56,974 nucleotides of DNA, filler included, from Sphacelaria rigidula (GCA_964200075.2; 6 parts of 6 records of this genome joined end to end with filler, not necessarily neighbours in it), one strand, 5' to 3'; counted from the whole stretch's first letter, positions 4,931-50,760 are shown. Notes: generated by a model from the letters alone, not told the origin. Numbers and translations: made by a program.

Positions 4931-5414
4931 TCATAATAATGCTGCTGTCAATGAGCAACCCATGGTCTTTGCACTTACCCCCGTGAGCCGTACTCACCTC
5001 CGCTCGACTCTGTCCACAATGATCAGACCGTCACCGGCAACCTTGGGTGCAGCAGCAGCACGCCCTACTTGAGGCTCTTCGTGCAAGGAGGAGTAACAGC
5101 TATGGGCAACGCGTTGGAGACACCGACGGCCGAGGACACGGTAACCCTTGCCGCGGTCGCCCCGGCTTCAGCTATTGGAGTGAGCCTTGTTCCTCCTCCC
5201 GCCTGCAGCGGCTCACCTGATGACGACGACGAAGGGGTTGTTTCTGCCCCTTGCTCCACCGCCGTCGCTACTGCTGCTTCTGCTGCTGATCCTCTGATGA
5301 TGCATCTCCAGCTTTGTCGATGGACCCTCCCGCCATCACCTCGGCATCTCCATGGGCAGACTCCCCCCCCTCCCCACCCCCCCCCCGAGGGTTGGCGTCG
5401 GTTGGCAGCGACGC

Positions 5415-5876
5415 TGTAAAACACGCCACTCACTGCGTAAGCTAGACAACCAGGTTACCGATTTTTTCGTTTGCGGTGACCGCGATGGCTGTCGAGCTAG
5501 ATCATAACGTGCGCGATGGAGAGCCTGAACTCCGCGCGAAGGGATGATCATACTACGCAGTGTTTTAATGGTGAGACACCCATGAGGCAGCGGACGACGT
5601 AGCTGCATCTGGAAGTGTCGATACCAGAAAACGAAGCAACTCATTCGAGGCTGCCATCCAAGTGGGAAATCTGCAGTACCCTCTCAGGCAACAATCTGAG
5701 CAGGATGCAGCTCACCTTGCATGCGACTCGCCGAACACATGACGGCGCTGCGCGCTTGGTGATTGCAAGCCTGGTCCGGCGAAAACCCGGCGTGTTGCGT
5801 CCCGGCTTTGTAGGGACGCGAGGTCAGTGGTCTTACAACAACGTCACGGAAGATCATGAGTACACCCCTCCCCCCG
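5415..5876. mobile_element. Dispersed repeat terminating in GATCATGAGTACACCCC
   Basis: Reverse-complement homolog at 10274-10740; translations in matching frames align (IPENEATHSRLPSK vs IPENEATHCRLPSK). The same terminal motif occurs at ~52907 and ~54819. Confidence 0.75.
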
Positions 5877-9413: not shown

Positions 9414-9513
9414 NNNNNNNNNNNNNNNNNNNNNNNNNNNNNNNNNNNNNNNNNNNNTTAATTAATTAANNNNNNNNNNNNNNNNNNNNNNNNNNNNNNN
9501 NNNNNNNNNNNNN
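9414..9513. other. Artificial contig linker (N44-TTAATTAATTAA-N44)
   Basis: Identical 100-bp spacer with stops in all six frames; repeated five times in the window. Confidence 0.97.
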
Positions 9514-10047
9514 TACTACTCTTTTGTTTCCGGCTTGCTTTTTTTGACCATTGACCACGCATCCCTTTCGAGACGGAGCTCGGGGGGGAGGCGGGGGGGG
9601 GAAGAACGGGAAGCTCGTCAAAACAAATTGAAACATCCTGGTGACAGCCAACAACACCAAAAACAAAAGGTCTAAATAAATCTCCGATCATTTCAACGAA
9701 TCGCTGTATTCCTGGGAGAACATCACTAGGCAAGATTGAGTAAAAAGACATACTCGTAGCGAATAAGAAACGAGTTGGACTAGAGAGGGGCGGTAGAACG
9801 CACCCGAACGTGGCGGGTGATGACTGCTCAGCAGCGACGTCCATTGCCATCTGCCACAGAGGCAGCAGGTACTACAGTGCTGCTTGATCAGCTCAGCAGC
9901 TACCCTTTACATGTTTAGAGCGATCAAAGGCATCACAGAACAATTGAAGCGGGGGAAGGAGGCCAGGCAACCCCACAGAATACCGAACGCAGGGGCTTGG
10001 GCTTTGGGGCATGTACCCGTGCCGCTCATGTTGGCATCTTCACTCAC

Positions 10048-13000
10048 TTGTACGATACGAACAAGTAGAGGACGGTGTTGACCAGCAGAAACCCCCACAC
10101 CACCAAAAACACTATCCACTCCAGCCCTCCTGTGCTCCCCTCCCGTTCCTCAAACATCCAGCTGCGATGGTGTTCGTTGTTTTTCACCAAAAATATCGGT
10201 AAGCACGCGAAAAAGGAGCCACCAGAAGATGAGCAAAGTTGGACAGGGTGGAAACACAACTGTGGGAAAACGGGGGGAGGGATGTATTCATGATCTTGCA
10301 AGTCTTGTCGCATGACCCCTGACCTCGCACCCCGAGAGAACGGAGCACGTCGGGTTTTCGACGAATATGGTTTGCAATCCATCACAAAGCGCGAAGTGCT
10401 GTGGTGTGTTCGGCGAGTCGCATGAAGAGTGAGCTGCATCCTGCGCAAGATTGTTCGGCCGGAAGCCAACTGATTATCTTGCATTTGGATGGCAGCCTAC
10501 AGTGAGTTGCTTCATTTTCTGGTATCGCCACTTCCAGAGACAGCCACGGCTTACACACTGCCTCATTGGTGTCTCGCCATTCGAACACGACGTGGTGTAA
10601 GCATCCCCTTTCGGCGAGATTGAGGTTCCTCCACTCCGCACAATGTGATCTAGCTCGACCACCATCATGGTTACCGCAATGAAAGGTATGCGCCAAAAAA
10701 AAAACGGCAACGTCGTCGCCTTGCTCACGCAATGAGTGACATCTTTTACAGCATTGCCAAGCGACGCCAACCTCATTACGGGGTACCAGGACGGGGGGCG
10801 TCGGTGGGGGGACAAAAGATATGAAGAGATCGACGAGAGCTCCACATCTCCCATTAGATCAGATTTTATGTGTGACGGTATTTGTTTAACGACTGACAGC
10901 ATGCGCTTCGAACAACTAACCGCACGTCTTCGACAATATCTACAGTACGTGTAAAAACACGCAGGAGCTGGTCACATTCAGTCGCCCGTTCCCGATACTG
11001 CTCCGACCACTAGTTCCGAGGCAAACTTCTGCAAAAAAAAGAAAGAAAAAGAAACAACGAGAGAACGCACTTGGAGTAGATGACGGATATTCCCTTCGCC
11101 AGCAAGACCGGCAGGAATACCACTCCCGAGTGGAGGTAAATGTTGAACACCACCGTGTAGAGAGCCATGCTGACTCAGGAGAAAATCAATGCGGCGCGGC
11201 GGATGGGGGGGGGGGGGGGGGAGAGAAGAAAGGAGAGCGTTGAATATTGTTGAAGAAATCCATCAATTGGACAAGAAGACCATATTCTCGTGCGAGGAGG
11301 GAAACGTCGACCCGCGTCTTCAACGGACGAGGCGCGAAGAACTCGACTTGACATTAAATCGGAACGACACCAAATACCAAATATCAAGTGGCCACACGAC
11401 CTTCTGTGTGCACGTGCACGTGCATGTCCATGGACGTGTCACGCTCAAGTGTGTGTGTGTGTTCTACTCCACTATCCGCATGTCTTCGGCTGTTGCACAG
11501 ACGAGCTCCGGCCCTGTCCTAGCACATTGTTCTGCACAAAAGAAGTGCGGTGGAAACGGAAAATCCTAATCCAACAGGTCGCCATTTCATCATATAATTC
11601 ACCTCCTGTTTTGACCTAACCGATTCGGATTCTTCTCCTCCGCCGCACCCTATCCGATTGAAATAACAATTTGCGAAAACAGAGCTTACCGAGACGCGCG
11701 CACATTAACACAGACACACACCATCCTTCATTTTTTTGATCGCGAAAACAGTATGAACTTACAATATGCGACCACGCTCCTGCTTGAAGTAGGACTCCCG
11801 TCCCGTCAGACTGGAAAGAACAGTCGTCGCCGACGCCGCATACCAACGCCTTGTTTTGCCGAGAGACGAGGGGAAAAAAGGGCGTGTTTACACGGGTTAA
11901 AAAAGACAACAAAACGCAAAAATATCACAGTACATCAGAGTAGGACGTAACGACCCTTGAGCAAAATCCCGCCGCACTCTGCACTCTGCACTCTGCACGC
12001 CTGTAAGGAACGGTCGCCTTCAACGTGAAAAGATGTCACAAGGACACAAAAACTGTACATTTTTCAACGAATAAAAAACGCCTCCAACAACACCAACAAC
12101 AGCAACACCAGCAACAGCAGAAAGTTGTGTGGAGCTGGATTAAAAAGCTGTGATCGGGGATCAAAAGGGGCATCCCGGGGAAATCTCAAGTTGGTGCTGT
12201 AGAGCTGAGGGCAGAGACTGTCAAGGCATTCATGGCGGTCCGCGGAGACGACAGAAGCACCAACAAAAAAAATTAAAGATGAAGGACGAGAAAATTCGCA
12301 TCACCTCCTCTGCGCGTAGAACTCCAGCAAGGATGGGGGCACGCACGTTACGGCATCGGCGACAGCGCACGAGCGCGCATCGTACGCCCTCTGGCGCAGC
12401 AGCACCAGCATCCCGTCGTCAGGTGATACGTCCAGCAAACTGGTACAAGAAGAAAGTGGCAGTAACACAGCTAATCCGTCAGTTCGGGCACGGAAAAGGG
12501 GAGCGGATCGAGCGAGGCGGGTACACAGGCGTAGAGTATTGTGGCACTACATACTGCTGTAAGTTACGACGGTAGACCTTCACCCCAACGGTGAAATCTC
12601 AGTCACATTCCACGCGTATTCTGCCCTGTCCCTTTCCGTACCTGCTGTCAAGACACGACATACAGTGTAGTGCAGACGAAAATGTGATTAGGTCTCAACC
12701 TGGAGAGGCTCGGAAAATCTCCTGCGGCGATTGTTGGCCGGGTGACCCAACACAAGTAAAAAAAATGTGAATCAACATGCAACATTCCGACCGCTGGCCG
12801 GTGTGGTGGTTATTCCTACAAAAGCTTCAAGAGGTTCATGACAGGGGAGGGTGACGTGAGAACCACTACATGAAAGGGATGAATCATCACCTGTCTTGTC
12901 ATGGAATCTTCTGTTCACATATGACCGTGTATTGTTCGTGAGACTTTTCCTGGAGTCCCCCCCCTCCTCTCCCCCCTCCCCCGTCGAGACTAGACAAAAC

Positions 13001-16000
13001 AAAAATCCGCGTCATATATCGCGGCAACGAAAACGCCGCCGAGTAGAAGCCCAAATGAATGAGGCACAGAACCCCCGAGGGTTGCTCGTGTCGAGCAAGC
13101 AAATTCCGGCCACGACATGGTGCAACCGACGAGTTCACGTTCGACCTCGGGAATAAAGATCAAAACAGACGTCCTCGCTTGCCCTCACTCTGACAAGAAT
13201 CAAACAGATCAATACGGGACATGTCTACACACATACAAGTACGTACACTACATAACTCACATCGTGGTGGCAAGACTACCCGCCGACTTCGAGAACATAT
13301 ACAGCGCCGGTGGCTGCGCCCCTTCTCCGATGGGAGGCATGGCACCCCTCCCATCCTCCACGAGGCAGGCGTACTTGAACATGACCGACGTGCCTCGGGC
13401 GGTAGTCTGTGCCGCATAGAACGACTCACCAACGCAGTCCCACACTTGCGCGTCTACGTTTGATTCAAAGATAAAAATTGGGGAAGCGGTAGCGACGGGG
13501 GGCGCGGGAAGGGGGTTGCTGGGAATGACATCAAACACAGAAAGGATAAAACAAAATAAATGAATGATGAAATAACGATGGCTCTGTTGTTCAAAATAAA
13601 AAAGGGACTTTCGTCGCTTCTTTTCGGGTTGTAGACGTCGCCAGCCCCCCCCACGTGAATCCGGCAAACGCCTCGACATTCCAGGATCTCGTACAGAGAT
13701 GCCTTCCTCCACCACTCGCTGCGTTCCTCGGTTTCCTGCTGCTCCTCCCTCGCCCTGTGGGTGCCCCCATCATCTTGCTGATCACCTCATTTCGTGATAG
13801 CACACAGGTACCTACTCAGCTACAAATTAGGCTGGTGTTTATATCACGAATATTTTCCTCGTCTCAACACCTCAAACAACAAAAGAAGGGAAAAAAACTC
13901 ACACTCTAGAGCTTGAGACGCTGACAGGAAAGAGCCGAATTGCGACATCGGTCGGACGGGGCAAGTGCATGCGGCCGTTTCCTTCTCCGACATGAGCAGG
14001 TGAAACATGCGCAGCACGTCGTCCAGCCCATTCTCCAGGTGCCCGGTATCGGCGTCCAGAATGTACACCGCCTCAGGTTCAGCCGCCTGACGGAACGAGA
14101 TCACCGCAGTGGATGATGATCAAGCGTTGTGTGTCGCAGAGGCCAGGCCGGCATATTAGTAACAGTACCAGTGTTGGATATACGCCGGCTTCAGAAGGGG
14201 GGGGGGGGGGAAATCTCCGCGATTGAGAACATCTGAGAGCCATTACCAGCAGAGAGAGGCGACAGCTGAAGATGACAATATTGTGTACACTGACTGTGCG
14301 TGCCAATTTCCGCCTGTAAAGACTCTGCATCATCACGTCCCGTGCCGTACGCATGTCGCGTGAAGGCAGTCAAGAATGGGAAAGACGAAACGAACACACG
14401 GGAATAGCGGTACACCGCGGAACACACGCCTACCCCTCCCACATACATCATCCATTTCGTTCCATTGTCATTGCATACGGACATGCCTCTCATGCACGTG
14501 CACTTCCACATCTCACCTCCCCCCGCGTGATCTTCGCCGGGAGAATTTCCTCGAAGAACATAACCAGACTGTTGCGCTTCCCCTGAGGAAGTGACTGACC
14601 CTGCCAATCAGAGCAACATCGTGCACAAAATATCCACAAATTACAGTCGGGTGGGTGAAATATCAGTCGAGATATTCCGCGTGGGGGAAAAGGGGCATCG
14701 GGAGAGGCGAGTCTCCATACCCAACTCTACGATGATCTCTAGTGCATTTTTCACGTTTCGCATCCCCCCCTCACCTCGTCGAGAACTGTACCCAGCTGAG
14801 TAAACAAGCTCGGGAAGGGTGCGTGTACGGCACCAATGGCGATATACGCACTCGGCGGACCTATTTTAAGAGGTAGTAGCCTGCAAGAAGCTCGGGTCCG
14901 ATTTCACGTTTCAAAACCTCACGGACAGCCGGCCGCACAATCGCCTGCCCTTCTGTCGTGTTCCAATGGTGGTTTGCTAGCCTTTGAGGTGATAATAAAA
15001 AGTTACACCACTCTGGACCACAACACAAAAACTAGTTTCGCTCATCAACGAGGGTTTTGGGGATGCGCGGTGGCGCTGCCGGATGCTGGACCCTGCACCC
15101 ACACCTGAACTGATTCAACATTGTGGAGCGGTTTCGTCTTTGACCACTTCCTGCCCCCGATTATTTCGTGTGTTATCCACGATGAGACGAGAGTGCTGGA
15201 GCCTCGCTTTGCACGTGAACACTATTCCAGACTTGCAACACCATGGGTAGCTTCGGCCAGATGAGAGTAAGCAAAATAGGCACTTGGAATCATTTCATCA
15301 ACGCGGTCAGAATTGTTAATTTTGGACAACGTTCCCATGAAGAACTCTTGAAGGTTTTGAGCTTTGCCAATTGCACGTCGTTACGTTGCATTTTCTTGGT
15401 GAAACAAAGCAATTTAAGGCTCGAGGTTTTTACACGTCCGACAGCTAACGAGCTGCCCACACTAAAACTTTACCCTTTGATGGTTCACTGATCCGGATCA
15501 TGAGATGGGTAATATGATCCCTTCTTCCATACTCGTTCCCAACAGCGCTGAACTCCAACCACGCGGAGTAGCGCAAAGGTAGCATACTGATCTTTCAGAC
15601 TCCGCTGTCACGCACTGTGTGATCTCGGTGAACGGATCTGACAGTTCCCTTCCAGTACTTATTTTTGGTGGCTCATGAGCTGCGCGACGTGTGCAAGTGT
15701 TGTAATTTGCACTAATCTTGATTTTTCAAAGTGTTTGAGCTCCAGGAGAAACATGTTTGGTGACCGACTTGCCGAGTCGTGGAGCTCCGTTGCGTCCTGT
15801 TCGCGCTAATGGAGTCTTCACCGTTGTGACATCGTGCGCCACGTACGAGTATTCATTATATAGTTGATAGCTATTTTTCACAACTTACCGAGACGCTGTT
15901 TTGGAATTGTTACGGGGACATGGAAAAGGGTTGGGAACAGGAAAGAGACAAAATATGTAACAGATGATGCGTAAGTTCTTCACCTTGACGTAAATATCGA

Positions 16001-16477
16001 ACGGAACCTGACTCTTGGGTATGACGCCCGACTCCCTCATGCACCCGAATTCTCCATAGGAATCTTGAGACTGTCCGGCCTCGCTTTTCTCCTCGCCTTT
16101 GCTACCGGATTCATTGACGGGCAGCAGCCGTCGCAGCTCCTGGTCACCACGAATAGAACCCCACGCCACAAAATCGACATACATGAACGAAAGAGTCGAC
16201 GGATTTGTGACTGTGCATCTTTTAATCGGGGGGTGGGAGGGAGGGGGGGGGAGGGGCTGCGGGGGAAATATTGTTGGTGTGCTGGTCTACGGAAGAACGA
16301 AGCAGTCCGTCTATTGTTGTTTTGCTCTCATCCCGTAACACACAAAAAATCCATCAAAGTGGCGAAGCGGGCGAAGAGTAACCGATCTTGTTGAGTCAAA
16401 AGAAACACCTGCCAACCTCGTCGCTCCCGAGCGAGGGCCGAGTACTGTAAAGGCGCGTGTGGTCGTCAACCACGAGG
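10048..16477 (-). CDS. Chitin-synthase-like processive GT2 glycosyltransferase, partial spliced gene (9 reconstructed exons; both ends incomplete)
   Basis: Exons on the minus strand: 16477-16417, 16139-15984, 14600-14517, 14086-13903, 13453-13261, 12439-12305, 11849-11763, 11169-11071, 10161-10048. All have AG/GT boundaries and matching phases; 1113 nt with no stops. Joined translation: LVVDDHTRLY...YGEFGCMRESGVIPKSQVPFDIYVK-GQSLPQGKRNSLVMFFEEIL...EAVYILDADTG...SASQALE-Y-AQVWDCVGESFYAAQTTARGTSVMFKYACL...TI-LLDVSPDDGMLVLLRQ...ADAVTCVPPSLLEFYAQR-R-RWYAAS, then two hydrophobic segments (MALYTVVFNIYLHSGVVFLPVLLA; WIVFLVVWGFLLVNTVLYLFVSY). The order DD, GKRxS, DADT, QxxEY, (E)D, QRRRW, TMs is the chitin synthase signature. 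Confidence 0.88.
10274..10740. mobile_element. Copy of the same repeat, inside an intron of the chitin-synthase-like gene
   Basis: Starts GGGGGGAGGGATGTATTCATGATC; homologous to the reverse complement of 5415-5876. Confidence 0.75.
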
Positions 16478-17440
16478 CTATTTCGAAGGAAATCTCCCGA
16501 TCAACCACAACGGCAGCGCAGCGAAAATTCAGGTTGTCAGGCTATACTACTATTACTATACTATTCAAGTACACTTTTCACGATACTACTGCTTTGGCCT
16601 TGCTACGTAGCAGAAAACAGGATGCTGATCCACGACGTACATGTGTACGCCAAGGATCGGATCGGATACCTGCAGACGTGCTTGGAAGCGGCAAACAGCA
16701 GAATAATTCAAGCTGCCGAGTCGTCGAACTTGACGTACATTAAGCAACACACGTACACGAAGGAGGACGTGGACGCGTTGATGGTATTTCCTTTCGTGAT
16801 AAAGGACAACGTCCACAACCTCATGCTCAAAAGGGACGAGCATCTTGTTGCGCCAACCGAAGTCGATGCCGAGTTTGACCTGCACAAAAGTTTTGGAGAG
16901 ACAACAGGACCCGTCCTCCGACATAGCACAGCTTGGCGATGGACCTGGCACTGATCCAGCCATCGTTGTGCTTCATAAACCGTGTTTCTGTATTCATGCT
17001 GCGGGCGTGGATGGACTGAAGGAAGGGGCGAGCGCTCAGCGATCGAATTATTGCAGCGATGCCCCTCAAATACAACAAAGGGAGAGGTTAAAATAGTTCA
17101 TGAGCGTTTGGGGGTACAGCTATCAGTGATGGTGGTGGATGGTGAGTGCAACTTCGCTATGCAGTGAAAACACTGCAGCACCACGTAAAGTAAAGAGGAA
17201 AATGTATAAATGTGGCGAAGTGTGTCGAGCACAGGGCGTCGCCATCTGCATTAATTTGAGGTACACTTCATCCAGGGGAATCTCCGAACCGATTCGATGT
17301 AGCATGTGGGTTGCAGGCTCAGGTCGTCTCCATTCCCCAACTTTTTTCACGTATCTTTTCCGCCGGTGGTTTTGTTCCTTGGGTTTTGTTTTCATGCTCA
17401 TCTCGCGCTCCCTGCTGTATTCGTAGCAGATCTGTTCTCA

Positions 17441-17649
17441 GGCCGTTTCTTCCGGTTCGTATTTTGTTTGGCTCGTATTTCCCACTTTCAGGACATTTGA
17501 CAAGGTTTTTGACCTCCTAACAGAGAAAATCGCTGCCACACGTCTTGGACACTTTGTATCACCCCACCGTTTGGGGGTCAAAAACCTTGTCATATGCCCC
17601 AAAAGTGGAAAATACGAGCCAAACAAAATACGAACCGGAAGAAACGGCC
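17441..17649. mobile_element. MITE with ~75-bp TIRs
   Basis: GGCCGTTTCTTCCGGTTCGTATTTTGTTTGGCTCGTATTT...GACAAGGTTTTTGACC / GGTCAAAAACCTTGTC...AAATACGAGCCAAACAAAATACGAACCGGAAGAAACGGCC. Confidence 0.88.
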
Positions 17650-17808
17650 CCATGCTCGACAATCGATCTCTAGGTAATTGTTCCCTTGTTTTTTTTTAGG
17701 CAGGGGGTCGTTTCTCGTCATTGGACACGAGTTCCTCGGCATCGCGAATGCAACGAGTCAACAGATTATACGTGAACTCCTCCATAATGCATACGAGATA
17801 CCATAGAT

Positions 17809-17940
17809 GCCGGTCGCCCCGGTGGCTCAGTTGGTAACCTCGCAAGCTTCCGACAGTTGGTAGTGGGTTCAAATCTCGGAGCGATCTGGGATTTCTCCTC
17901 GCACCATGTCCAACGGTGGGGAGCGACCATGTGATGGGTA
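17809..17940 (+). mobile_element. 5' part of the tRNA-derived SINE
   Basis: GCCGGTCGCCCCGGTGGCTCAGTTGG...GGGTTCAAATCTCGGAGCGATCTGGGATT; similarity stops where an inverted-repeat element (~17940-18147) begins. Confidence 0.8.
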
Positions 17941-18507
17941 TTCACGCCGCTTCTTTTGGATTGAAAAAAGTCTGAGAAAAGTCGTTTTGGTCACTCTTCA
18001 GAGACTTTTTTCAGAACGCGACCTGATACGGTCATTTTTCATTTCAAAAGCCTCTGGAAATTGGCCACAATTTGCAGACAGAGGGATCTTGCCAAATCTC
18101 TCCGCGAAAAGCCATCGATTCGCGTAGTCTTTTCTCAGTCTGCGAATTGTCGTTCCATCACACATTCCTCGCACACCGCACCCGTAATGGTACAGTCAGT
18201 GCAAAAGTAGTTGCCCATGTTTTATGTACAGTATAGTGCCAAAAGCATAGCTGCTATAGCACTCCGTGCATCCTTTTCATGACCGTAGAACCAGGGGCAG
18301 ACAGTGCAGTGTTTTATTGCCCGCAGCGTTGCTATCGTGAAATAGCACGATGACGCCCCTGCTGGCTGTGTTGATTATGCTCGTATCGTTTGATGCTCGT
18401 CGTGCCCGCCACCGATCGCGGACTCTGTAGTATTCTGCGTACTCAGACGGTTGCTACCGCACTACTGACTGTCACGTTATTTTTCTTGTGTGCGGAATGG
18501 CACAAAC

Positions 18508-18622
18508 CGTCTGCTGCACACATTGCGCCGCTTGCGACACGACTACTACTGTACCAAGCGGCGATCGGCTGAAGTAAAGGTTGATGCGCTCATCACTTCG
18601 ATCCCCACTATACCAGTAGCTA
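18508..18622 (-). CDS. Tentative upstream exon of the chitin-synthase-like gene
   Basis: cacag|TAGCTAC...CAGACG|gtttgt gives SYWYSGDRSDERINLYFSRSPLGTVVVVSQAAQCVQQT. A hydrophobic segment (LVVVIICILYLCHLR, ~18735-18790) lies further upstream in the same frame. This loosely resembles the post-TM 'W...ER...LF' segment before the catalytic domain of chitin synthases. The linking exon(s) to 16477 were not resolved. Confidence 0.4.
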
Positions 18623-18926
18623 CTGTGCATGTGCGTGTGTGCGTCTGTGTGTTTGTGTCTACGTGTGTGTTGCCATCCCATCCATGCTGTATCTTGACAG
18701 GATTTATCACGTGTTGGTTCACCACAGGCTCGCCGCAGGTGGCACAAGTACAAAATGCAAATGATGACCACTACTAGCGTAGCACGCAGGCTAGATGATG
18801 ACCTCGGGTGTACAAATCCCCAGGATTCTTTCAAGGATCGGACGATTGATGATTCGTCTGGAAATTACTTGGTTCAAGTATGATGAGTCGATTCGCGACG
18901 AATCAATCCCTAGGCTATATTTCAGC

Positions 18927-19026
18927 NNNNNNNNNNNNNNNNNNNNNNNNNNNNNNNNNNNNNNNNNNNNTTAATTAATTAANNNNNNNNNNNNNNNNNN
19001 NNNNNNNNNNNNNNNNNNNNNNNNNN
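18927..19026. other. Artificial contig linker
   Basis: N44-TTAATTAATTAA-N44. Confidence 0.97.
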
Positions 19027-19586
19027 AAGCCTTATGACACTTATGCCGGAAGTTGTATCTACACAATATTTAGACTACAGTGTCGAGTGTACATATCATC
19101 TGGCGCAGCGGCCGGAGGTATAGGCATGAAGGCCACTGGACACCGCTATCATACGATCCATCCCGTCACTCGTCACATAATAATGCCGATCGCCCGTATT
19201 GCGCAACGAGCTCTTCGAAAATTCGAGAAAATAATCTTGTTTTTTAGTTTTGTCGAAAAACCGACCGAGAAGTGCTCGGTTACGTTTTTTTTCGTTTAAA
19301 AAAAAAAAAAACGACCGAAACCGACCGACTTTTTCGAAAAAACCCGAAAAACCGACCGAGCCATTTTCAGCTTTGGTTCACAACATTGGTCCCAGATCAT
19401 AAAATGGGAATTCGAACGGCAACACGGCGATAAGCGGCGATGCTGCAGACACCACACACCTGGCAAAACACTCATCATGTTGCCAGAATATGTTCTGTCT
19501 GGATAATGAATGCTTCGGGCGTGAATAAGGCGGGGTTTTCATGTGCGGAAATAATAATAATAACAATAATAATAATAATAATAATA

Positions 19587-28439: not shown

Positions 28440-28539
28440 NNNNNNNNNNNNNNNNNNNNNNNNNNNNNNNNNNNNNNNNNNNNTTAATTAATTAANNNNN
28501 NNNNNNNNNNNNNNNNNNNNNNNNNNNNNNNNNNNNNNN
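28440..28539. other. Artificial contig linker
   Basis: N44-TTAATTAATTAA-N44. Confidence 0.97.
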
Positions 28540-37951: not shown

Positions 37952-38051
37952 NNNNNNNNNNNNNNNNNNNNNNNNNNNNNNNNNNNNNNNNNNNNTTAAT
38001 TAATTAANNNNNNNNNNNNNNNNNNNNNNNNNNNNNNNNNNNNNNNNNNNN
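37952..38051. other. Artificial contig linker
   Basis: N44-TTAATTAATTAA-N44. Confidence 0.97.
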
Positions 38052-39146: not shown

Positions 39147-42100
39147 CTGTTGGCAGAGATGGTGCCCACTTGCGCCACTTCCTCTTTGGTGGAGATGGGC
39201 TTACTGATCTCCGACAGTACCGTCACCACGTGATCCGTGGCCAGCTTGATGCCCTTGCGAAGGTCCATCGGGTTCATACCGGCTGCCACCGCCTACAGCA
39301 CATCCCCAATTCAGGTCAAGGACGTCCAAAACAGTAGAGCGGAAAATGGGAAACACTTGAATAAGCAGTGTGTGTGAGAGAGGGACGAACCAAAAGTGTT
39401 CCCTCATCCTGGACATACAATGACTTGGTTCTTGTGAACAACATGCCCCTCGCGCTGCGCAACATGCGGTACGAATAGGGTCCATTCCCCAGTCCTGCCA
39501 GGAGAGAGAGTCTTCCTGCCCTGCGAAAGCTAGGTCATGGACGATGCTTGGGGCATGAAAGTACGGATCATAGCACGACACAAAGCACCTCTTGCTCCTG
39601 AACACATCTCACAGCCCCTGTCAACTCTCTGGCATGAGGGTGTTTTTTACGGGTGACTCTCAGCAGCGGCCGCGATAAGCGGTTCCCCCAGAGGAGAATA
39701 TACCTGTTGATGAGAGTTGCTGAACGACCGTAGTATCGGGACAAATGAAGGATCACGCTTTTCACCACCCCTTGATATACAAAATACGCTTGCAGTCAAC
39801 GGACGCGATGAAGCATGAACCTCTTGGCGGCGAGAGTAGGTCATCTGTTGACCCGGCATCAGTCACTTGAAAATATTAGCTCCCGAAGGGTTAAACATCC
39901 CGTTAACCCTTAGACCGCGAGGTTAGTCTTGTGTTGAATCGGCATCAATTTCAAATGAAAAAAAGTATGAATGATCCAGAAGGACCAATCTCGCGGTCCA
40001 AGGGTTGACCCTTTGACCGCGAGGGTAGGTCACCTGCTGAATCGGCATCAATTTCATTTGAAAAAAGTGTGCGTGATCCAGATGGACTACCCGCATCGCG
40101 ATCCAAGGTTCAACCCTCCCGTAAAAAGATAAAAATGTTCGGCGCAATCCTGCCCCAAGACTGACCTTGCACCCTTCGCGGAAGATGGCCCGTGTCAATA
40201 CCGTCGCCGTGGTCGTCCCGTCTCCCGCAACGTCGTTCGTCTTCGAAGCAACCTGCCATGACAACAATTACACCGGACCGTGAAAATGACACGCGTTACG
40301 GGAAGAACATGGTGTCATCAATACGAGAAAGTGATGCTTGGGGAAACTCACCTCGACCCTGTCACAACGATGGTAGGTCACCAGTGGAATCTGTATCAAT
40401 TTCACTCGAAAAAAGTTAATGTGATCCAGATAGACTACCCGCATCGCGGTGTGGGACACGGTAAGGATGAATCATCACGACTACGAATGACCAAATCCAC
40501 GATTTCTTCTGCCTGATTGCCCAAAAGGGAGAAAAAAGTTGACCGCTGGTTCAAGGGGTATCCACGCAACTTTTGCGCCATTNNNNNNNNNNGATTGATT
40601 TGTACGATTCGAATCAATTATACCAAAGCCAAGTAATTTCCAGATGAATCATTATTTGTCCGACCCTTGAAGGGTTAACGCGTCTAAGCACGTATTCCGG
40701 CTGGAACGTGCCGGACAGGAGCTGCCAAGTCGATTTTTTTGAAAGGTGGCTATTTCTCCAGAAGATGAACAGTACGGTTTGGGCACATTCACGGTTATGA
40801 CAAATAATGATTCGTCAGGAAATTCCTTGGTTCTAGTATCATAAGTTGACTCGCGATGAATAAATCCTCATGACTCATTTCAGCGTTATAACCCACGTAC
40901 ACGCAGCCCAGACACGTGGAATGGCAATCAGGCAGAAGAAATCGTGAATTTGGTGATTTTGAGTCGTGATGATTTGTCCTAACCGTGGACACATTTGATT
41001 ATACTGGTTGATTGTCGCACATTAGCTCATCCGCTACTAGTCCACCCGTGGTCATCAGATGGACATACGTACCTGAGGTATATACAGAAATAGACAAAGG
41101 TTCAGATGTTTCATCGCCGGTTTGAATCATTAAATCTACGACTTTTGAGGCCTGATCGCTCGGAAAATATTATAAAAGTGGACTGCTGTCCACGAAGGTC
41201 TGTACGCAATTTTTGCGCCATTCCACGTGCCTGGGGTACGCGTGGCTTGGGTGCAACGCTCGAATCGAAGTAAAAGGATTGATTCGTACGGTACGGATCA
41301 ATCACACTGAAATCAAGTAATTTCCAGACGAATCGTTCGTTCATCCAACACTTGATTTACAGACGGCATCTGGGACGTACGTATGTTCTTTCGTATTTCT
41401 CAAGTCATTTTCTATTACACCAAGGCCACATCTTATCAAGACCAAGAGAAGCGGGACAAATGGGCAAGTGTCCAAAAGTAGCATGTTGATTGACCGCTGG
41501 GCGAGTCTATGGTTGCGGCGACCGATCAACATGTTGTTTTTGGCTGCTTCTTCCTTTTCCCGCTTTTTTTTCTTTGGTCTCGACAAGATACGGTCTAGAC
41601 GCTTGACACTTGAAGCTTGATTCTCATGAAAAAGATGCGGTTGCTGGGAAGGTTGCCAAGGATTCCAACCAATCGAGGAGGCTGTATGACTGTTTTTCGC
41701 TGCCAACCTGTACCCGCCATGGAAGAGACGCCTGCTGTACCCTATTTATCTTGTCCGTAAATGCTCGAGACGTCTACAACGCGCTGGGTAGTTTGGGCAT
41801 CGCGTTGGAAATACTGTATGGTGTGGAGCACGGACCGAGCTAACCGGTATGTGGCGGCATGATAAATCTGCGCGTGGGCCTCATGTATCATCAAGCACCT
41901 TCACTCTACGACAGGTAGTTTGCAACGCAGTTGACGAGCCAGGACACCAAAATAACTACTAAAATGGGAGAGGACTCTCAAATGCAGTGTTCATCCACAC
42001 AAAATACGTGGCAGCGGGGTCGGAGAAGCCGGAGCGCTTCACCTCTGTGCTAAATCCGCACGCTCTGCGTCAAGCGCCGTAGGGAGAAAATATGGAAACA

Positions 42101-44452: not shown

Positions 44453-44815
44453 ACCGGTCGCTCCGGTGGCTTAGTTGGTAACCTCGACACCGTTTGACGG
44501 TTGAGTCGTGGGTTCGAATCTCGGGAGCGATCTGGGATTTTCTCTCGCACAATGCCCAACAATGGAGATCGACTATATCGTGGGAACGTGCAATCCGACT
44601 TGATGGTCGACGAGGGAAAGGGACTGCTGAACCGGTCTCGCGATGAAAAAAATATAAAGGCAAGCACAGCAGAAGGAATGTGGAGTACCACAACAAACAA
44701 AAAAGAAGAACTCCTGTGTTGGCCATCCTCCTGTGTGACCGCGGCTGGTACGCCCATATATATATACCGAAATGTGTAGACCGGCGTCCAGAATAGATGG
44801 GACAACAACAACACA
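44453..44815 (+). mobile_element. tRNA-derived SINE (~360 bp)
   Basis: Head CCGGTCGCTCCGGTGGCTTAGTTGG (A box) ... GGGTTCGAATC (B box), non-tRNA body, (ACA)n tail; homologs at 17809, 45908 (reverse) and 50354. Confidence 0.85.
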
Positions 44816-45549: not shown

Positions 45550-45908
45550 TGTTGTGTGTGTTGTGTTGTCATCCCATCTATTCTGGACGCCGGTCTACAC
45601 CTTTCGGTATATGTGGACGCATCAGCCGGGGTCACACAGGAGGAAGGTCAACACGGGAGTTTTTCAGTGTTTGTTTTAGTTCTCCACCTTCCTTCTGCGG
45701 TGCTTGCCTTTCTTTTTATCGCGAGAGGGGTTCAGCAGTCCCTTTCTCTTGTCGACCGTCAAGTCGACTTATGTGTACCCACGACATAGTCGCTCTCCAC
45801 TGCTGGGCATTGTGTAAGAAAAAATCCTAGATCGCTCCGAGATTTGAATCCACCACGCAACCGTCGGAAGGGTTCGAGGTTACCAACTGAGCCACCGGGG
45901 CGACCGGC
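45550..45908 (-). mobile_element. tRNA-derived SINE, full-length reverse copy
   Basis: Reverse complement reads GCCGGTCGCCCCGGTGGCTCAGTTGG...GGATTCAAATC...GTGTAGACCGGCGTCCAGAATAGATGGGATGACAACACAACAC. Confidence 0.85.
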
Positions 45909-47024
45909 ATAAGGTATGACGAAAAAATGTGAGTGAACATCCAGAGTGTAAAACAAATAAATGTAGAGTAAAATCAAGTAGACAGAGCCAAGTTAACCCT
46001 TTTGAAACCCTCCCCTCCTGTCCCCGGGCCAAACGCCTCATTATAAGAAGCCCTGACAAGGAGGAAAAGATGGAAGCAGAGAAGGCCGACGGCAATCAAT
46101 TCATAATGAAAGACCGAAGAAGAATCCCGTAGAATACGCGGCGGGTGCATAGGGATGCTACGGTAGAGGTGCACAAATATTTTCTGAGGCTAGAATTGTT
46201 AGGAGCCCTTCATCTCGTGCCAAACACGAGTTATGAAATATGTGAGAGTACGCCAGGATTACTATTCCAATATGCTAGGGATGACCGGAGTAAATTTGCA
46301 AACGGGGGTGCCCTGATCCATATTCTTGTGCATCTAGAATCTTTAGGGGCTCCTGAACCAGACAAGATTTCGCGCAAAAAGTGCACCCCTACCGTAGCAT
46401 TACTCTGCAGGAAAAATGTCCTCCCTGGAGAAGTCGGGTGAGGTTTATCCAATAATACCACGCAACGGATGAAGTGTCCCCAATTGTATCCATCGACAAT
46501 AATCAGCGAAAGCACTATGAAACATTCCTTTAAAAAAATAGCAGTGGGTTCCAGGATCTGGTACGGCAAATCGGTAAATAGGAAACCTTCTTTTAGTTTC
46601 ACTTGTCACTCGCACGGGTCTGAAAAATACGCATTCCGTGAATGTTGTTGCGTAAAAGCTGTGAACCATCAACCATATCTTGCTCAAAAACCGTCAATTG
46701 CAAATGATTAATTTTCGATTGTGAGTTCCAAAAGGGTTAATCGAATGGGGGAGTATAGTCCACTCTTCGATGCCATGCGTGTGGCGAAACCTTGAGAGTC
46801 TTTTCAGCTATTTCCAGCATGGAGCTCTGTCGAGCTCCTTCTTCAGCGCTCAGCCCTGAGCACACTGAGTGCTCCGAACGCTTCTATTCTCTAAAAATGC
46901 TAGTAAAAATGGACTATGACCGCCTGGCCGTGGAGACCTGGGTGCTGCCGCGCCCGAGCAATTCATCTGATTAACACTAGCCAGGTAGAGCCGAAGGTTG
47001 CGGGCCCAGAGATACTGTCTTTTT

Positions 47025-47463: not shown

Positions 47464-47563
47464 NNNNNNNNNNNNNNNNNNNNNNNNNNNNNNNNNNNNN
47501 NNNNNNNTTAATTAATTAANNNNNNNNNNNNNNNNNNNNNNNNNNNNNNNNNNNNNNNNNNNN
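47464..47563. other. Artificial contig linker
   Basis: N44-TTAATTAATTAA-N44. Confidence 0.97.
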
Positions 47564-49154: not shown

Positions 49155-49664
49155 ACCCCCCACACAACACAACAACCAAACANNNNNNNNNNGTTGCCCC
49201 CCCCCCCCCCCCGATGAAAAAATGAGACAATATATCGACTATATCAATATCCGTTATTGATATTGATACGTCTCGACAAATATCGGCTTGGGAAGCGGCG
49301 ATACCGATACGCCGTATCGACCGATATTATCGAAATCGTATCGAGTATCGATATCCGATTTTCAACACTGCACCATAGGCTGCTCTCGACGATGAGTGTA
49401 CTTTTGGAAACTTGAAAGCTTTTCATGCGTGCGTACCCTCTTCCACTTCCACCTGTGAAACGAGATGGCGGTTTGCTGCATCTACTGGAAACGGTTCAGG
49501 GCCATGTCCACATTCCACATAACATCACACCGTGTCCTATTTAGCAGCGCAAGGGCCGCAACACCCCATGTTCCAGCTCTCACTGTCACCGAGAAGATCA
49601 AAATCGTATCCGCATGCATTCCAGTCATTGTGCTTGCAGTCTACAATAGAGGTCCCACTTACTA

Positions 49665-50353: not shown

Positions 50354-50760
50354 ACCGGTCGCCCCGACGGCTCAGCCAGTAACCCCGAAACCTTCTGAGG
50401 GTTGGGTTGTGGGTTCGAATTTCGGTGAAGTCACACCATCCGGGATTTTATCTCCCACCATGCCCAATAGTGGAGGGTAACCATGCTGTGGGTACGAGTA
50501 CGAAAACATCGATTTCTCGATCGACCGAGGGAAAAGAACCGCTGAACTCCTCTCGCGAGTGACAATTATTAAGCCAAGCGCCGTCACAATAACGCGCCGG
50601 GCAGCAAAGTCTCAGTACCGTCCTTGCACTTGTACGAAACACAACGACGCAATTTGGTTCTATGTCATGTTGTGTGTTCTCAACTCATCTGTTCTGGACG
50701 CCAGTCTACATATTTCGGTGTATGTGAGCACATCAGCCGGGATCACACAAGAGCAAAGGC
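50354..50760 (+). mobile_element. Diverged SINE copy, with an inverted tail fragment at ~50665-50750
   Basis: CCGGTCGCCCCGACGGCTCAG...GGGTTCGAATTTCGG; the downstream TTCTGGACGCCAGTCTACATATTTCGGT matches the reverse strand of the SINE tail. Confidence 0.7.

Follow-up and report, generated by a model that had tools for sequence, protein, structure and literature searches.

A spliced and transcribed gene for a divergent chitin-synthase-like glycosyltransferase, present in part on a contig of the brown alga Sphacelaria rigidula

Alginate, fucans and cellulose are the constituents usually given for brown algal walls. The locus we describe here raises the question of what a gene resembling a chitin synthase is doing in the genome of a brown alga: whether it is a real gene of its host, what it descends from, and what its protein might make. 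It lies on the minus strand of a contig named Sphacelaria rigidula in the public record (GCA_964200075.2), and we analysed it within a window of 56,974 nucleotides (nt), filler included, that joins six pieces of 9411–9413 nt with spacers of N between them. The gene is in the second piece (9514–18926, 9413 nt). Our answer, which we hold to be probable, is that the contig carries the internal part of a nuclear, intron-rich and transcribed S. rigidula gene for a processive family 2 glycosyltransferase (GT2) of the chitin synthase/hyaluronan synthase branch. In this answer the gene is the ortholog of Ectocarpus chs-1 and has come down vertically within the ochrophytes, and uridine diphosphate N-acetylglucosamine (UDP-GlcNAc) is the likeliest donor of its enzyme.

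The evidence that the gene is split and expressed comes from three RNA-like sequencing runs of one study, X1, X2 and X3. Their RNA nature was guessed, none of them is on record as RNA, and the spliced contigs bear the guess out. Each run yielded one contig of 5.3–5.5 kb across the gene, at depths of 164, 208 and 246, respectively. The contigs jump across the genomic sequence at seven joints (10161>11071, 11169>11763, 11848>12304, 12439>13261, 13453>13903, 14085>14516 and 14599>15983), and all seven skipped parts have CT..AC ends on the plus strand, which is to say that they are GT..AG introns on the minus strand. In the DNA-like run X5, no contig had any of the seven joints and the contigs crossed the introns unbroken. 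We conclude that the split gene is real, transcribed and spliced. The exons are listed below in the order of translation, with matches to a hidden Markov model (HMM) of the protein family and to P0001, a partial protein from the public databases.

15984–16139, minus strand: exon 1 on the contig (156 nt, phase 0); its encoded stretch finishes with the conserved PFDIYVK; acceptor CAG, donor GTGAAG; transcript piece 15983–16140 in X1–X3, joint 14599>15983; tblastn with Ectocarpales orthologs E 1e-8 to 6e-4, family HMM E 0.022.
14517–14600, minus strand: exon 2 (84 nt), with GKRNS; joints 14085>14516 and 14599>15983; family HMM E 2.9e-5; present in P0001.
13903–14086, minus strand: exon 3 (184 nt), with DADT (the DxD motif) and QALE; joints 13453>13903 and 14085>14516; donor GTGAGT, the codon of the next Y being split by the intron; family HMM E 3.1e-18; 100% identical to P0001.
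13261–13453, minus strand: exon 4 (193 nt), completing QALEY, with a G-x4-(F/Y)(K/R) loop and LVEDG; joints 12439>13261 and 13453>13903; family HMM E 6.3e-7.
12305–12439, minus strand: exon 5 (135 nt), with LLDVSPDDG (the catalytic-base position), TCVP and the QRR of QRRRW; joints 11848>12304 (cut +1) and 12439>13261; family HMM E 1.6e-11.
11763–11849, minus strand: exon 6 (87 nt), with the RW of QRRRW and the interface helix; joints 11169>11763 and 11848>12304; family HMM E 0.009.
11071–11169, minus strand: exon 7 (99 nt), first hydrophobic, transmembrane-like segment, with hydropathy windows above 1.6 at model residues 279–294; joints 10161>11071 and 11169>11763; tblastn E 3e-5.
10048–10161, minus strand: exon 8 (114 nt), second hydrophobic segment, with hydropathy windows up to 2.43 at residues 322–332; joint 10161>11071; absent from P0001; ends at a GTGAGT donor at 10047.

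With the joints resolved to GT..AG, the eight exons add up to 1052 nt and read as 350 codons with no stops, while the other two frames have 5 and 8 stops. Introns fall between QALE and Y and between QRR and RW, just as had been noticed in a preliminary description made from the sequence alone. That description had proposed an intron-rich host gene of nine exons with canonical splice sites and 371 stop-free codons. The transcripts agree on the host gene, which is spliced in X1–X3 and lies on a brown algal contig that shares repeats with three other pieces, and they contain eight of the nine exons and seven of the eight junctions. The ninth exon is unconfirmed, and the codon count has to be revised: the confirmed model has 350, and the nine-exon path as we could rebuild it has 376. 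Another in-frame open stretch, at about 14778–14870 between exons 1 and 2, was considered as an exon and rejected; the transcripts jump over it at joint 14599>15983, and in all relatives VK-Gxxxx-GKR is contiguous.

No exon coordinates had been given in the preliminary description, and the only nine-exon path that could be rebuilt adds the following stretch at the 5' side.

16399–16477, minus strand: presumed 5'-most exon with the "DD" motif, probably intron; acceptor AATAG, donor GTTGGC; keeps the frame open, for 376 codons in all.

The transcript contigs are not on this stretch, and the depth of the bin 16422–16735 is 0 in X2 and X3. In X1 the same bin has a depth of 2.96, which is exactly the share of a low-depth (6.78), unspliced contig of 296 nt at 16263–16558 that crosses both of the proposed splice sites. 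The neighboring bin, 16108–16421, has a depth of 21.8 in X2, and only 33 nt of exon 15984–16139 account for it. Neither the family HMM nor an HMM of brown algal N-termini matched 16399–16477, and its donor is unlike the other eight, which are all GTG or GTA. By eye it does resemble the "...SF(V/I)LD...(S/T)DE" that orthologs have just ahead of the next exon. We therefore treat 16399–16477 as unconfirmed as an exon and probably intronic, rather than as disproved.

Both ends of the gene overrun the contig, which carries an internal part only. Exon 10048–10161 ends in a GTGAGT donor, so the gene must continue past the contig end at 9514; the lower bound of 10048 in the preliminary description is the last exon base before this donor. 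The transcript contigs have more than 4 kb beyond this exon, and 115–231 nt extra at the 5' side. We searched the whole window for the orthologs' N-terminal exons (the CCCNE and LSTFR region) with tblastn, the family HMM and the N-terminal HMM and found none, the best match having an E of 1.1 and lying in an unrelated piece; the 5' exons are probably off the contig. The gene had been called intact. Here, where the N-terminal exons lie off the contig together with the channel and WGTR region of the C-terminus, "intact" can mean only that the part that is present shows no defect. A weak tblastn match to the segment just past WGTRD of two orthologs (E 0.54 and 2.4) was seen at 19034–19165 on the minus strand. 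It contains a stop, lies in a different piece and is on the wrong side for collinearity, and it is probably a chance match.

The gene had also been called hidden, which does not describe its place in the databases. P0001 is an NCBI protein of 256 amino acids (aa), "unnamed protein product, partial [Sphacelaria rigidula]", that spans six of the eight exons; minus its first residue, it is an exact substring of the 350-codon translation. The transcript-backed model thus lengthens the public fragment from 256 to 350 aa. An exhaustive phmmer search of 1.84 billion representative proteins found 43 relatives at E<=1e-3, many of them single-exon fragments. Orthologs that are 61–63% identical come from Ectocarpus species, Ascophyllum, Hapterophycus and two eukprot proteomes, and the Phaeothamnion protein is 44% identical. 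The cluster of relatives (NCBI, UniRef name) also contains CBN76686.1, "chitin synthase 1, chs-1 [Ectocarpus siliculosus]", from a 3.7-Mb scaffold, and an Aureococcus "chitin synthase" is also among the clustered relatives. CBN76686.1 is linked to P0001 through a 90%-identity cluster that it shares with the other Ectocarpus orthologs. Those from other Ectocarpus species are 62–63% identical to P0001 and have the motifs in the same order, and we take CBN76686.1 with the adjoining Esi_0000_0460 to be orthologous. We did not find any characterization of these orthologs, as far as the literature searches reached. The Sphacelaria gene is a new member of an uncharacterized, database-annotated clade of chitin-synthase-like GT2 proteins in ochrophyte algae.

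Full-length models of the brown algal family have WGTR further on, followed by a long tail, and Sphacelaria is known from an internal fragment. In the full-length orthologs P0050, P0071, P0073 and P0074 the C-terminal tails have about 1000 or more low-complexity residues, with repeated units like "GIRAAWG.S.G.SQDD" and stretches rich in G, R and S. The tail of the Ectocarpus siliculosus protein is annotated as a separate gene, Esi_0000_0460. The 5.3–5.5 kb transcript suggests a similar long tail in Sphacelaria. A full-length Sphacelaria protein was sought among translations of the X1–X3 transcripts and none was found.

What kind of enzyme is encoded? The ordered catalytic motifs are all there in the eight-exon model: DADT at residue 91, QALEY at 138, PDDG with its DD at 213–214, and QRRRW at 249 (model numbering). 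A DxD motif and QRRRW followed by two hydrophobic segments on the contig are the arrangement of a processive GT2. The family profile aligns these motifs with the QNFEY or QHFEY, the AEDR and the QRRRW or QRKRW of solved chitin synthases. Across the family alignment the motifs read GKRxS, D(A/G)D(T/S), QxxEY and QRRRW, with (D)SxxWGTR in the members that are long enough. The EWGTR, VWGTR or LWGTR near the C-terminus of the orthologs aligns with the SWGTK of solved chitin synthases; in Sphacelaria this position is beyond the contig end. The motif series read from the sequence beforehand stands for GKRNS, DADT, QALEY and QRRRW, in the order proposed, and falls short at its "DD", the exon of which is absent from the transcript contigs. 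The "(E)D" of that series was probably LVEDG, which is kept only in brown algal orthologs. By the family alignment the position of the catalytic base is PDDG, with LLDVSPDDG lined up against AEDR of the solved chitin synthases.

Profile searches point the same way. With a family profile built from a 17-sequence alignment, we obtained six matches in the PDB at E<=0.01, and all six are chitin synthases (Candida albicans Chs2 at 5.5e-10, Phytophthora sojae Chs1 at 1.8e-9), with alignments that run through QxxEY, ED, QRRRW and WGT(R/K). The same profile against 5.8 billion proteins gave 39 matches and, beyond the algal relatives, all the named ones are fungal chitin synthases. In the ESM Atlas, ten of the ten best family-bearing clusters belong to chitin-synthase families.

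For the fold we used the AlphaFold model of P0072, the ortholog from E. fasciculatus, which is 62% identical to the window protein (pLDDT 67.6, pTM 0.72, helices through to residue 618). In the Foldseek ranking, the listed places 1 to 20 all went to chitin synthases (E 8.8e-15 to 5e-12, TMq 0.50–0.60). Hyaluronan synthases came next, with 5e-10, and cellulose synthases were no better than 5e-7. The listed matches at E<=1e-3 are all membrane-embedded processive GT2 enzymes, save an archaeal mannosyltransferase at rank 47 of the P0072 search. The best folds for the ortholog are P. sojae Chs1 (7wjm), C. albicans Chs2 (7stl) and Saccharomyces cerevisiae Chs1 (8k3q and related entries), with matches that run through both the GT-A domain and the transmembrane part, although their identity is only 13–16% to the ortholog model and 14–21% to the window fragment. 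The processive GT2 architecture is also that of the class I hyaluronan synthases, such as Xenopus HAS1 (8smm) and the Chlorella virus HAS (7sp6). For the 256-aa fragment from the window (pLDDT 71.7) they equal the chitin synthases: of the 33 matches at E<=1e-3, every one listed is a chitin or hyaluronan synthase, and other folds are weaker, the best cellulose synthase being at 1.8e-3. For the full-length ortholog, class I hyaluronan synthases are weaker than chitin synthases (TMq 0.36 vs 0.59), and they are absent from the profile matches in the PDB, so we do not place the protein among them. The nearest solved structures to P0072 are chitin synthases. Motifs, profile-to-PDB matches and predicted fold agree with the earlier assignment to chitin-synthase-type GT2 enzymes, and they support a divergent processive GT2 of the chitin synthase/hyaluronan synthase type.

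To ask where the gene came from, we built a maximum-likelihood tree of 37 rows and 500 columns, rooted with NodC, with the window protein, 13 clade members, 4 animal, 16 fungal or unnamed and 2 viral chitin synthases; diatom and oomycete chitin synthases, hyaluronan synthases and the protein of the phaeovirus EsV-1 were outside its sampling, and four rows are on long branches. The 14 algal and environmental rows form one ochrophyte clade with 100/100 support. Within it, the window protein and five brown algal orthologs group at 100/100, Phaeothamnion is their sister at 100/99, and a second Ascophyllum protein, Aureococcus and environmental sequences branch outside the brown algal/Phaeothamnion group. 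The window protein is basal to the other brown algal orthologs. The clade does not fall within an established division of chitin synthases; it stands apart from the animal, fungal and two viral sequences that were sampled. NodC, the rhizobial chito-oligosaccharide synthase that served as the outgroup, is of the same GT2 superfamily and has QRRRW, but is a bacterial protein of 426 aa on a very long branch far from the ochrophyte clade. The branching order follows the organisms, and vertical descent in ochrophytes is therefore the simple reading. It fits one of the two origins suggested beforehand, inheritance from stramenopile ancestors.

The other suggested origin, domestication of a phaeovirus gene of the EsV-1 type, was already disfavored and we find it scarcely credible. 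What speaks for it is that EsV-1 has a chs gene and that a silent integrated copy is present in the Ectocarpus genome, according to the portion of PMC5122149 available to us, so a chitin-synthase-type gene does occur in a brown algal genome as viral DNA. The Sphacelaria gene has seven spliceosomal introns and is expressed. Phaeothamnion and Aureococcus have relatives too, and their order in the tree resembles that of the species. When viral contigs were scanned with the family profile, none of the 39 pattern matches proved to be a relative. A canonical query did find two viral chitin synthases; both are strong Pfam matches and group with fungal ones, not with the ochrophyte clade. As the same portion of PMC5122149 has it, the EsV-1 gene is canonical and Pfam-detectable, silent, and of a class (ESV) inside fungal division 2; the Sphacelaria gene, which is intron-rich, expressed and of another clade, is set apart from it by description.

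The two viral sequences are worth a remark of their own. The first, at 508–2349 of L001 (an IMG/VR contig of 84 kb), is a canonical chitin synthase with 280 bits on Chitin_synth_2. The second, at 457–2481 of L002, is also a canonical chitin synthase, with 38 bits on Chitin_synth_1 and 29 bits on Chitin_synth_2. Both contigs are AT-rich and giant-virus-like, and each protein groups with a different fungal chitin-synthase class in the tree.

The expected biochemistry of our preferred reading can be sketched from the solved relatives. A cytosolic GT-A domain would bind the nucleotide sugar and a metal through DADT. The Asp of PDDG would be the base that deprotonates the acceptor hydroxyl at the non-reducing end, and the Trp of QRRRW would stack against the acceptor sugar where a transmembrane channel opens. 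The helices of exons 7 and 8 would build this channel together with others encoded outside the contig, and the beta-linked chain would exit through it during elongation. The product might be chitin, chito-oligosaccharides or another polymer that contains GlcNAc. UDP-GlcNAc as donor and a GlcNAc-containing polymer as product are our best guess; this donor is the likeliest because both of the nearest solved families, chitin and hyaluronan synthases, use it.

Several points weigh against this reading. To our knowledge chitin has not been described as a wall polymer of brown algae. The protein scores poorly with curated profiles: the preliminary description had named a Pfam search as the way to check its assignment, and here P0001 fails, with 14.3 bits on Chitin_synth_2 and 25.4 bits on Glyco_trans_2_3 against cut-offs of 27 for both. 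The orthologs P0049, P0072, P0073 and P0075 had no chitin-synthase match in Pfam at E<=0.1, and NCBIfam gave 0 families for P0001. Six single-exon translations, of which one was out of frame, had 0 Pfam families, such exons being too short to pass the filters. In the wider clade, two of the seven members scanned barely pass a Pfam chitin-synthase cut-off (P0007 at 30.8 and P0013 at 28.7; the others were P0006, P0010, P0018, P0021 and P0059). A single-sequence phmmer search of the PDB found one chitin synthase at an E of 0.34. When the catalytic fragment is taken alone, a hyaluronan synthase ranks first (Xenopus HAS1, E 3.2e-8). The N-terminal nucleotide-binding part and the C-terminal WGTR are off the contig and seen in orthologs only. 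All of the RNA-like runs are from that one study, on a guess as to their nature. The stem of the ochrophyte clade is long (1.66) and outside the sampled animal and fungal chitin synthases, and the product may therefore differ.

The catalytic base is the strongest reason for caution about the product. Solved chitin synthases have the E of the canonical "ED", and in the brown algae it is replaced by P in 7 of 7 orthologs. Of these seven, Sphacelaria alone keeps the base Asp itself. In the other six the residue is N or S and the next one is E, so that Ectocarpales and Ascophyllum read PNEG or PSEG where Sphacelaria has PDDG. ED is kept in Phaeothamnion and in seven of the eight more distant members, the eighth having QD. 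In the later-branching brown algae, either the base slid by one residue or the chemistry changed.

These observations can be read in two other ways. The first is that the architecture is the same and the product is not a GlcNAc polymer, with the brown algal/Phaeothamnion subclade making mannuronan (the alginate backbone), a glucan or a mixed, hyaluronan-like chain. We regard this as possible but doubtful. The long stem and the position apart from the sampled chitin synthases, the scores below the Pfam cut-offs, the remodeled base motif and the hyaluronan synthase at the top of the fragment's structural matches all count in its favor. On the other side, all solved structures matched by the profile are chitin synthases, and cellulose synthases and other GT2 folds are far weaker matches than chitin and hyaluronan synthases, both of them UDP-GlcNAc users. 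The wider clade includes Aureococcus, and we know of no report that Aureococcus makes alginate. The donor sugar is not readable from these data in either direction. The literature leaves room for such a product: in the part of PMC11468063 that was accessible, mannuronan synthase "putatively belongs to" GT2, without functional validation, there is no Alg8 homolog in brown algae, and the remaining GT2 genes fit no known activity and may count putative mannuronan synthases among them. A specific form of this idea would be that the subclade with P-[DNS]-[DE]-G no longer makes chitin and could be the brown algal mannuronan synthase, the GT2 of the alginate backbone; we consider this very unlikely. 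In a less radical version, the enzyme could make a polymer or oligomer that contains GlcNAc and has never been described in these algae.

The second is a catalytically dead or regulatory relic that keeps the fold, or a transcribed pseudogene. This seems unlikely to us, even though 6 of 7 brown algal orthologs have PNE or PSE in place of the canonical ED, the family-profile scores are weak and the gene was inspected only as a fragment. The 350 spliced codons have no stops, and the depth of the transcript contigs is high (164–246). QRRRW is present in all 16 rows of alignment A3 that span it (P0078 ends earlier), and the first Asp of DxD (D40 in P0001) in all 17 rows, with N at the second position in the environmental sequence P0013. 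The canonical base position is still Asp in Sphacelaria, and in the other orthologs a Glu follows one residue later. The tree follows the species, and the branches within the brown algae are short, as expected under purifying selection.

If we return to an active polymerase, what would it mean? Sphacelariales, Ectocarpales and Fucales share a conserved, spliced and well expressed polymerase of the chitin-synthase type, and it is found in sister ochrophytes as well. Censuses based on domains would miss the gene because it is under the Pfam cut-offs. An active enzyme would mean that brown algae produce some polymer or oligomer that current wall models lack, whether chitin, a signal made of chito-oligosaccharides or something new. 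The ortholog in Ectocarpus is open to genetic study, and Sphacelaria is the only one of the seven brown algal orthologs compared that retains the canonical catalytic Asp. Full-text literature searches, with supplements and many subscription papers outside their scope, found no paper on the brown algal chs-1 clade, on a host chitin synthase or on chitin in brown algae. Of two large brown algal surveys, neither that of carbohydrate-active enzymes in PMC11468063 nor the Phaeoexplorer preprint has the word "chitin" in its available main text (0 occurrences, supplements being outside this count), which also weighs against a chitin product. One lead is that, in the available part of PMC8944128, wheat germ agglutinin stained spots on kelp tissue itself; this staining is unspecific.

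The remaining question about the gene is whether the contig belongs to the alga at all. A short contig (9413 nt) in a fragmented assembly could come from a contaminating fungus, oomycete or epiphytic animal, for example. This possibility was already disfavored, and we reject it as having a negligible probability. The closest relatives are brown algal (61–63% identity), the position at the base of the brown algal orthologs fits an early-branching brown alga, and DNA-like runs labeled with the same organism contain 36–87% of the contig's sampled words. By 5 blastn matches, two repeat families of the gene's contig recur elsewhere in the window, in three other pieces, which upholds an argument from shared short interspersed nuclear elements (SINEs) and other repeats that had been made beforehand. 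The two families are as follows.

10271–10772, no strand assigned: dispersed repeat in the last of the introns on the contig; matches 5390–5876 with 73% identity over 513 nt; summed depth very high in all runs.
17807–17940: SINE-like dispersed repeat of about 135 nt, 71–85% identity to 44454–44584, 45776–45910 and 50355–50494 (pieces 5 and 6); summed depth of the region very high in all runs.

In the DNA-like run, the summed depth of 9514–9827, 10142–10769 and 17364–18926 is thousands of times the single-copy level (about 64). These stretches are therefore high-copy repeats that flank the gene and lie inside the last intron on the contig.

Upstream of the gene are overlapping open frames of 128–167 aa, at 16451–16954 on the plus strand and 16589–16972 on the minus strand. 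They had no Pfam family and only low-depth RNA-like contigs (depth 2–3.5), and they may be intron or a decayed element. Pfam gave 0 families for three open reading frames upstream of the gene, and a scan of the gene's contig with Rfam gave 0 matches. The introns have long G runs (C on the gene strand) at 11205–11227, 14193 and 16226–16260, where many contigs in all runs break or have loose ends.

The window as a whole is not a single locus, and its pieces look like size-sorted contigs from a fragmented assembly. Its gaps are the following.

9414–9513, 18927–19026, 28440–28539, 37952–38051 and 47464–47563: N spacers between pieces (paired 44-N).
40583–40592 and 49183–49192: further gaps of 10 N.

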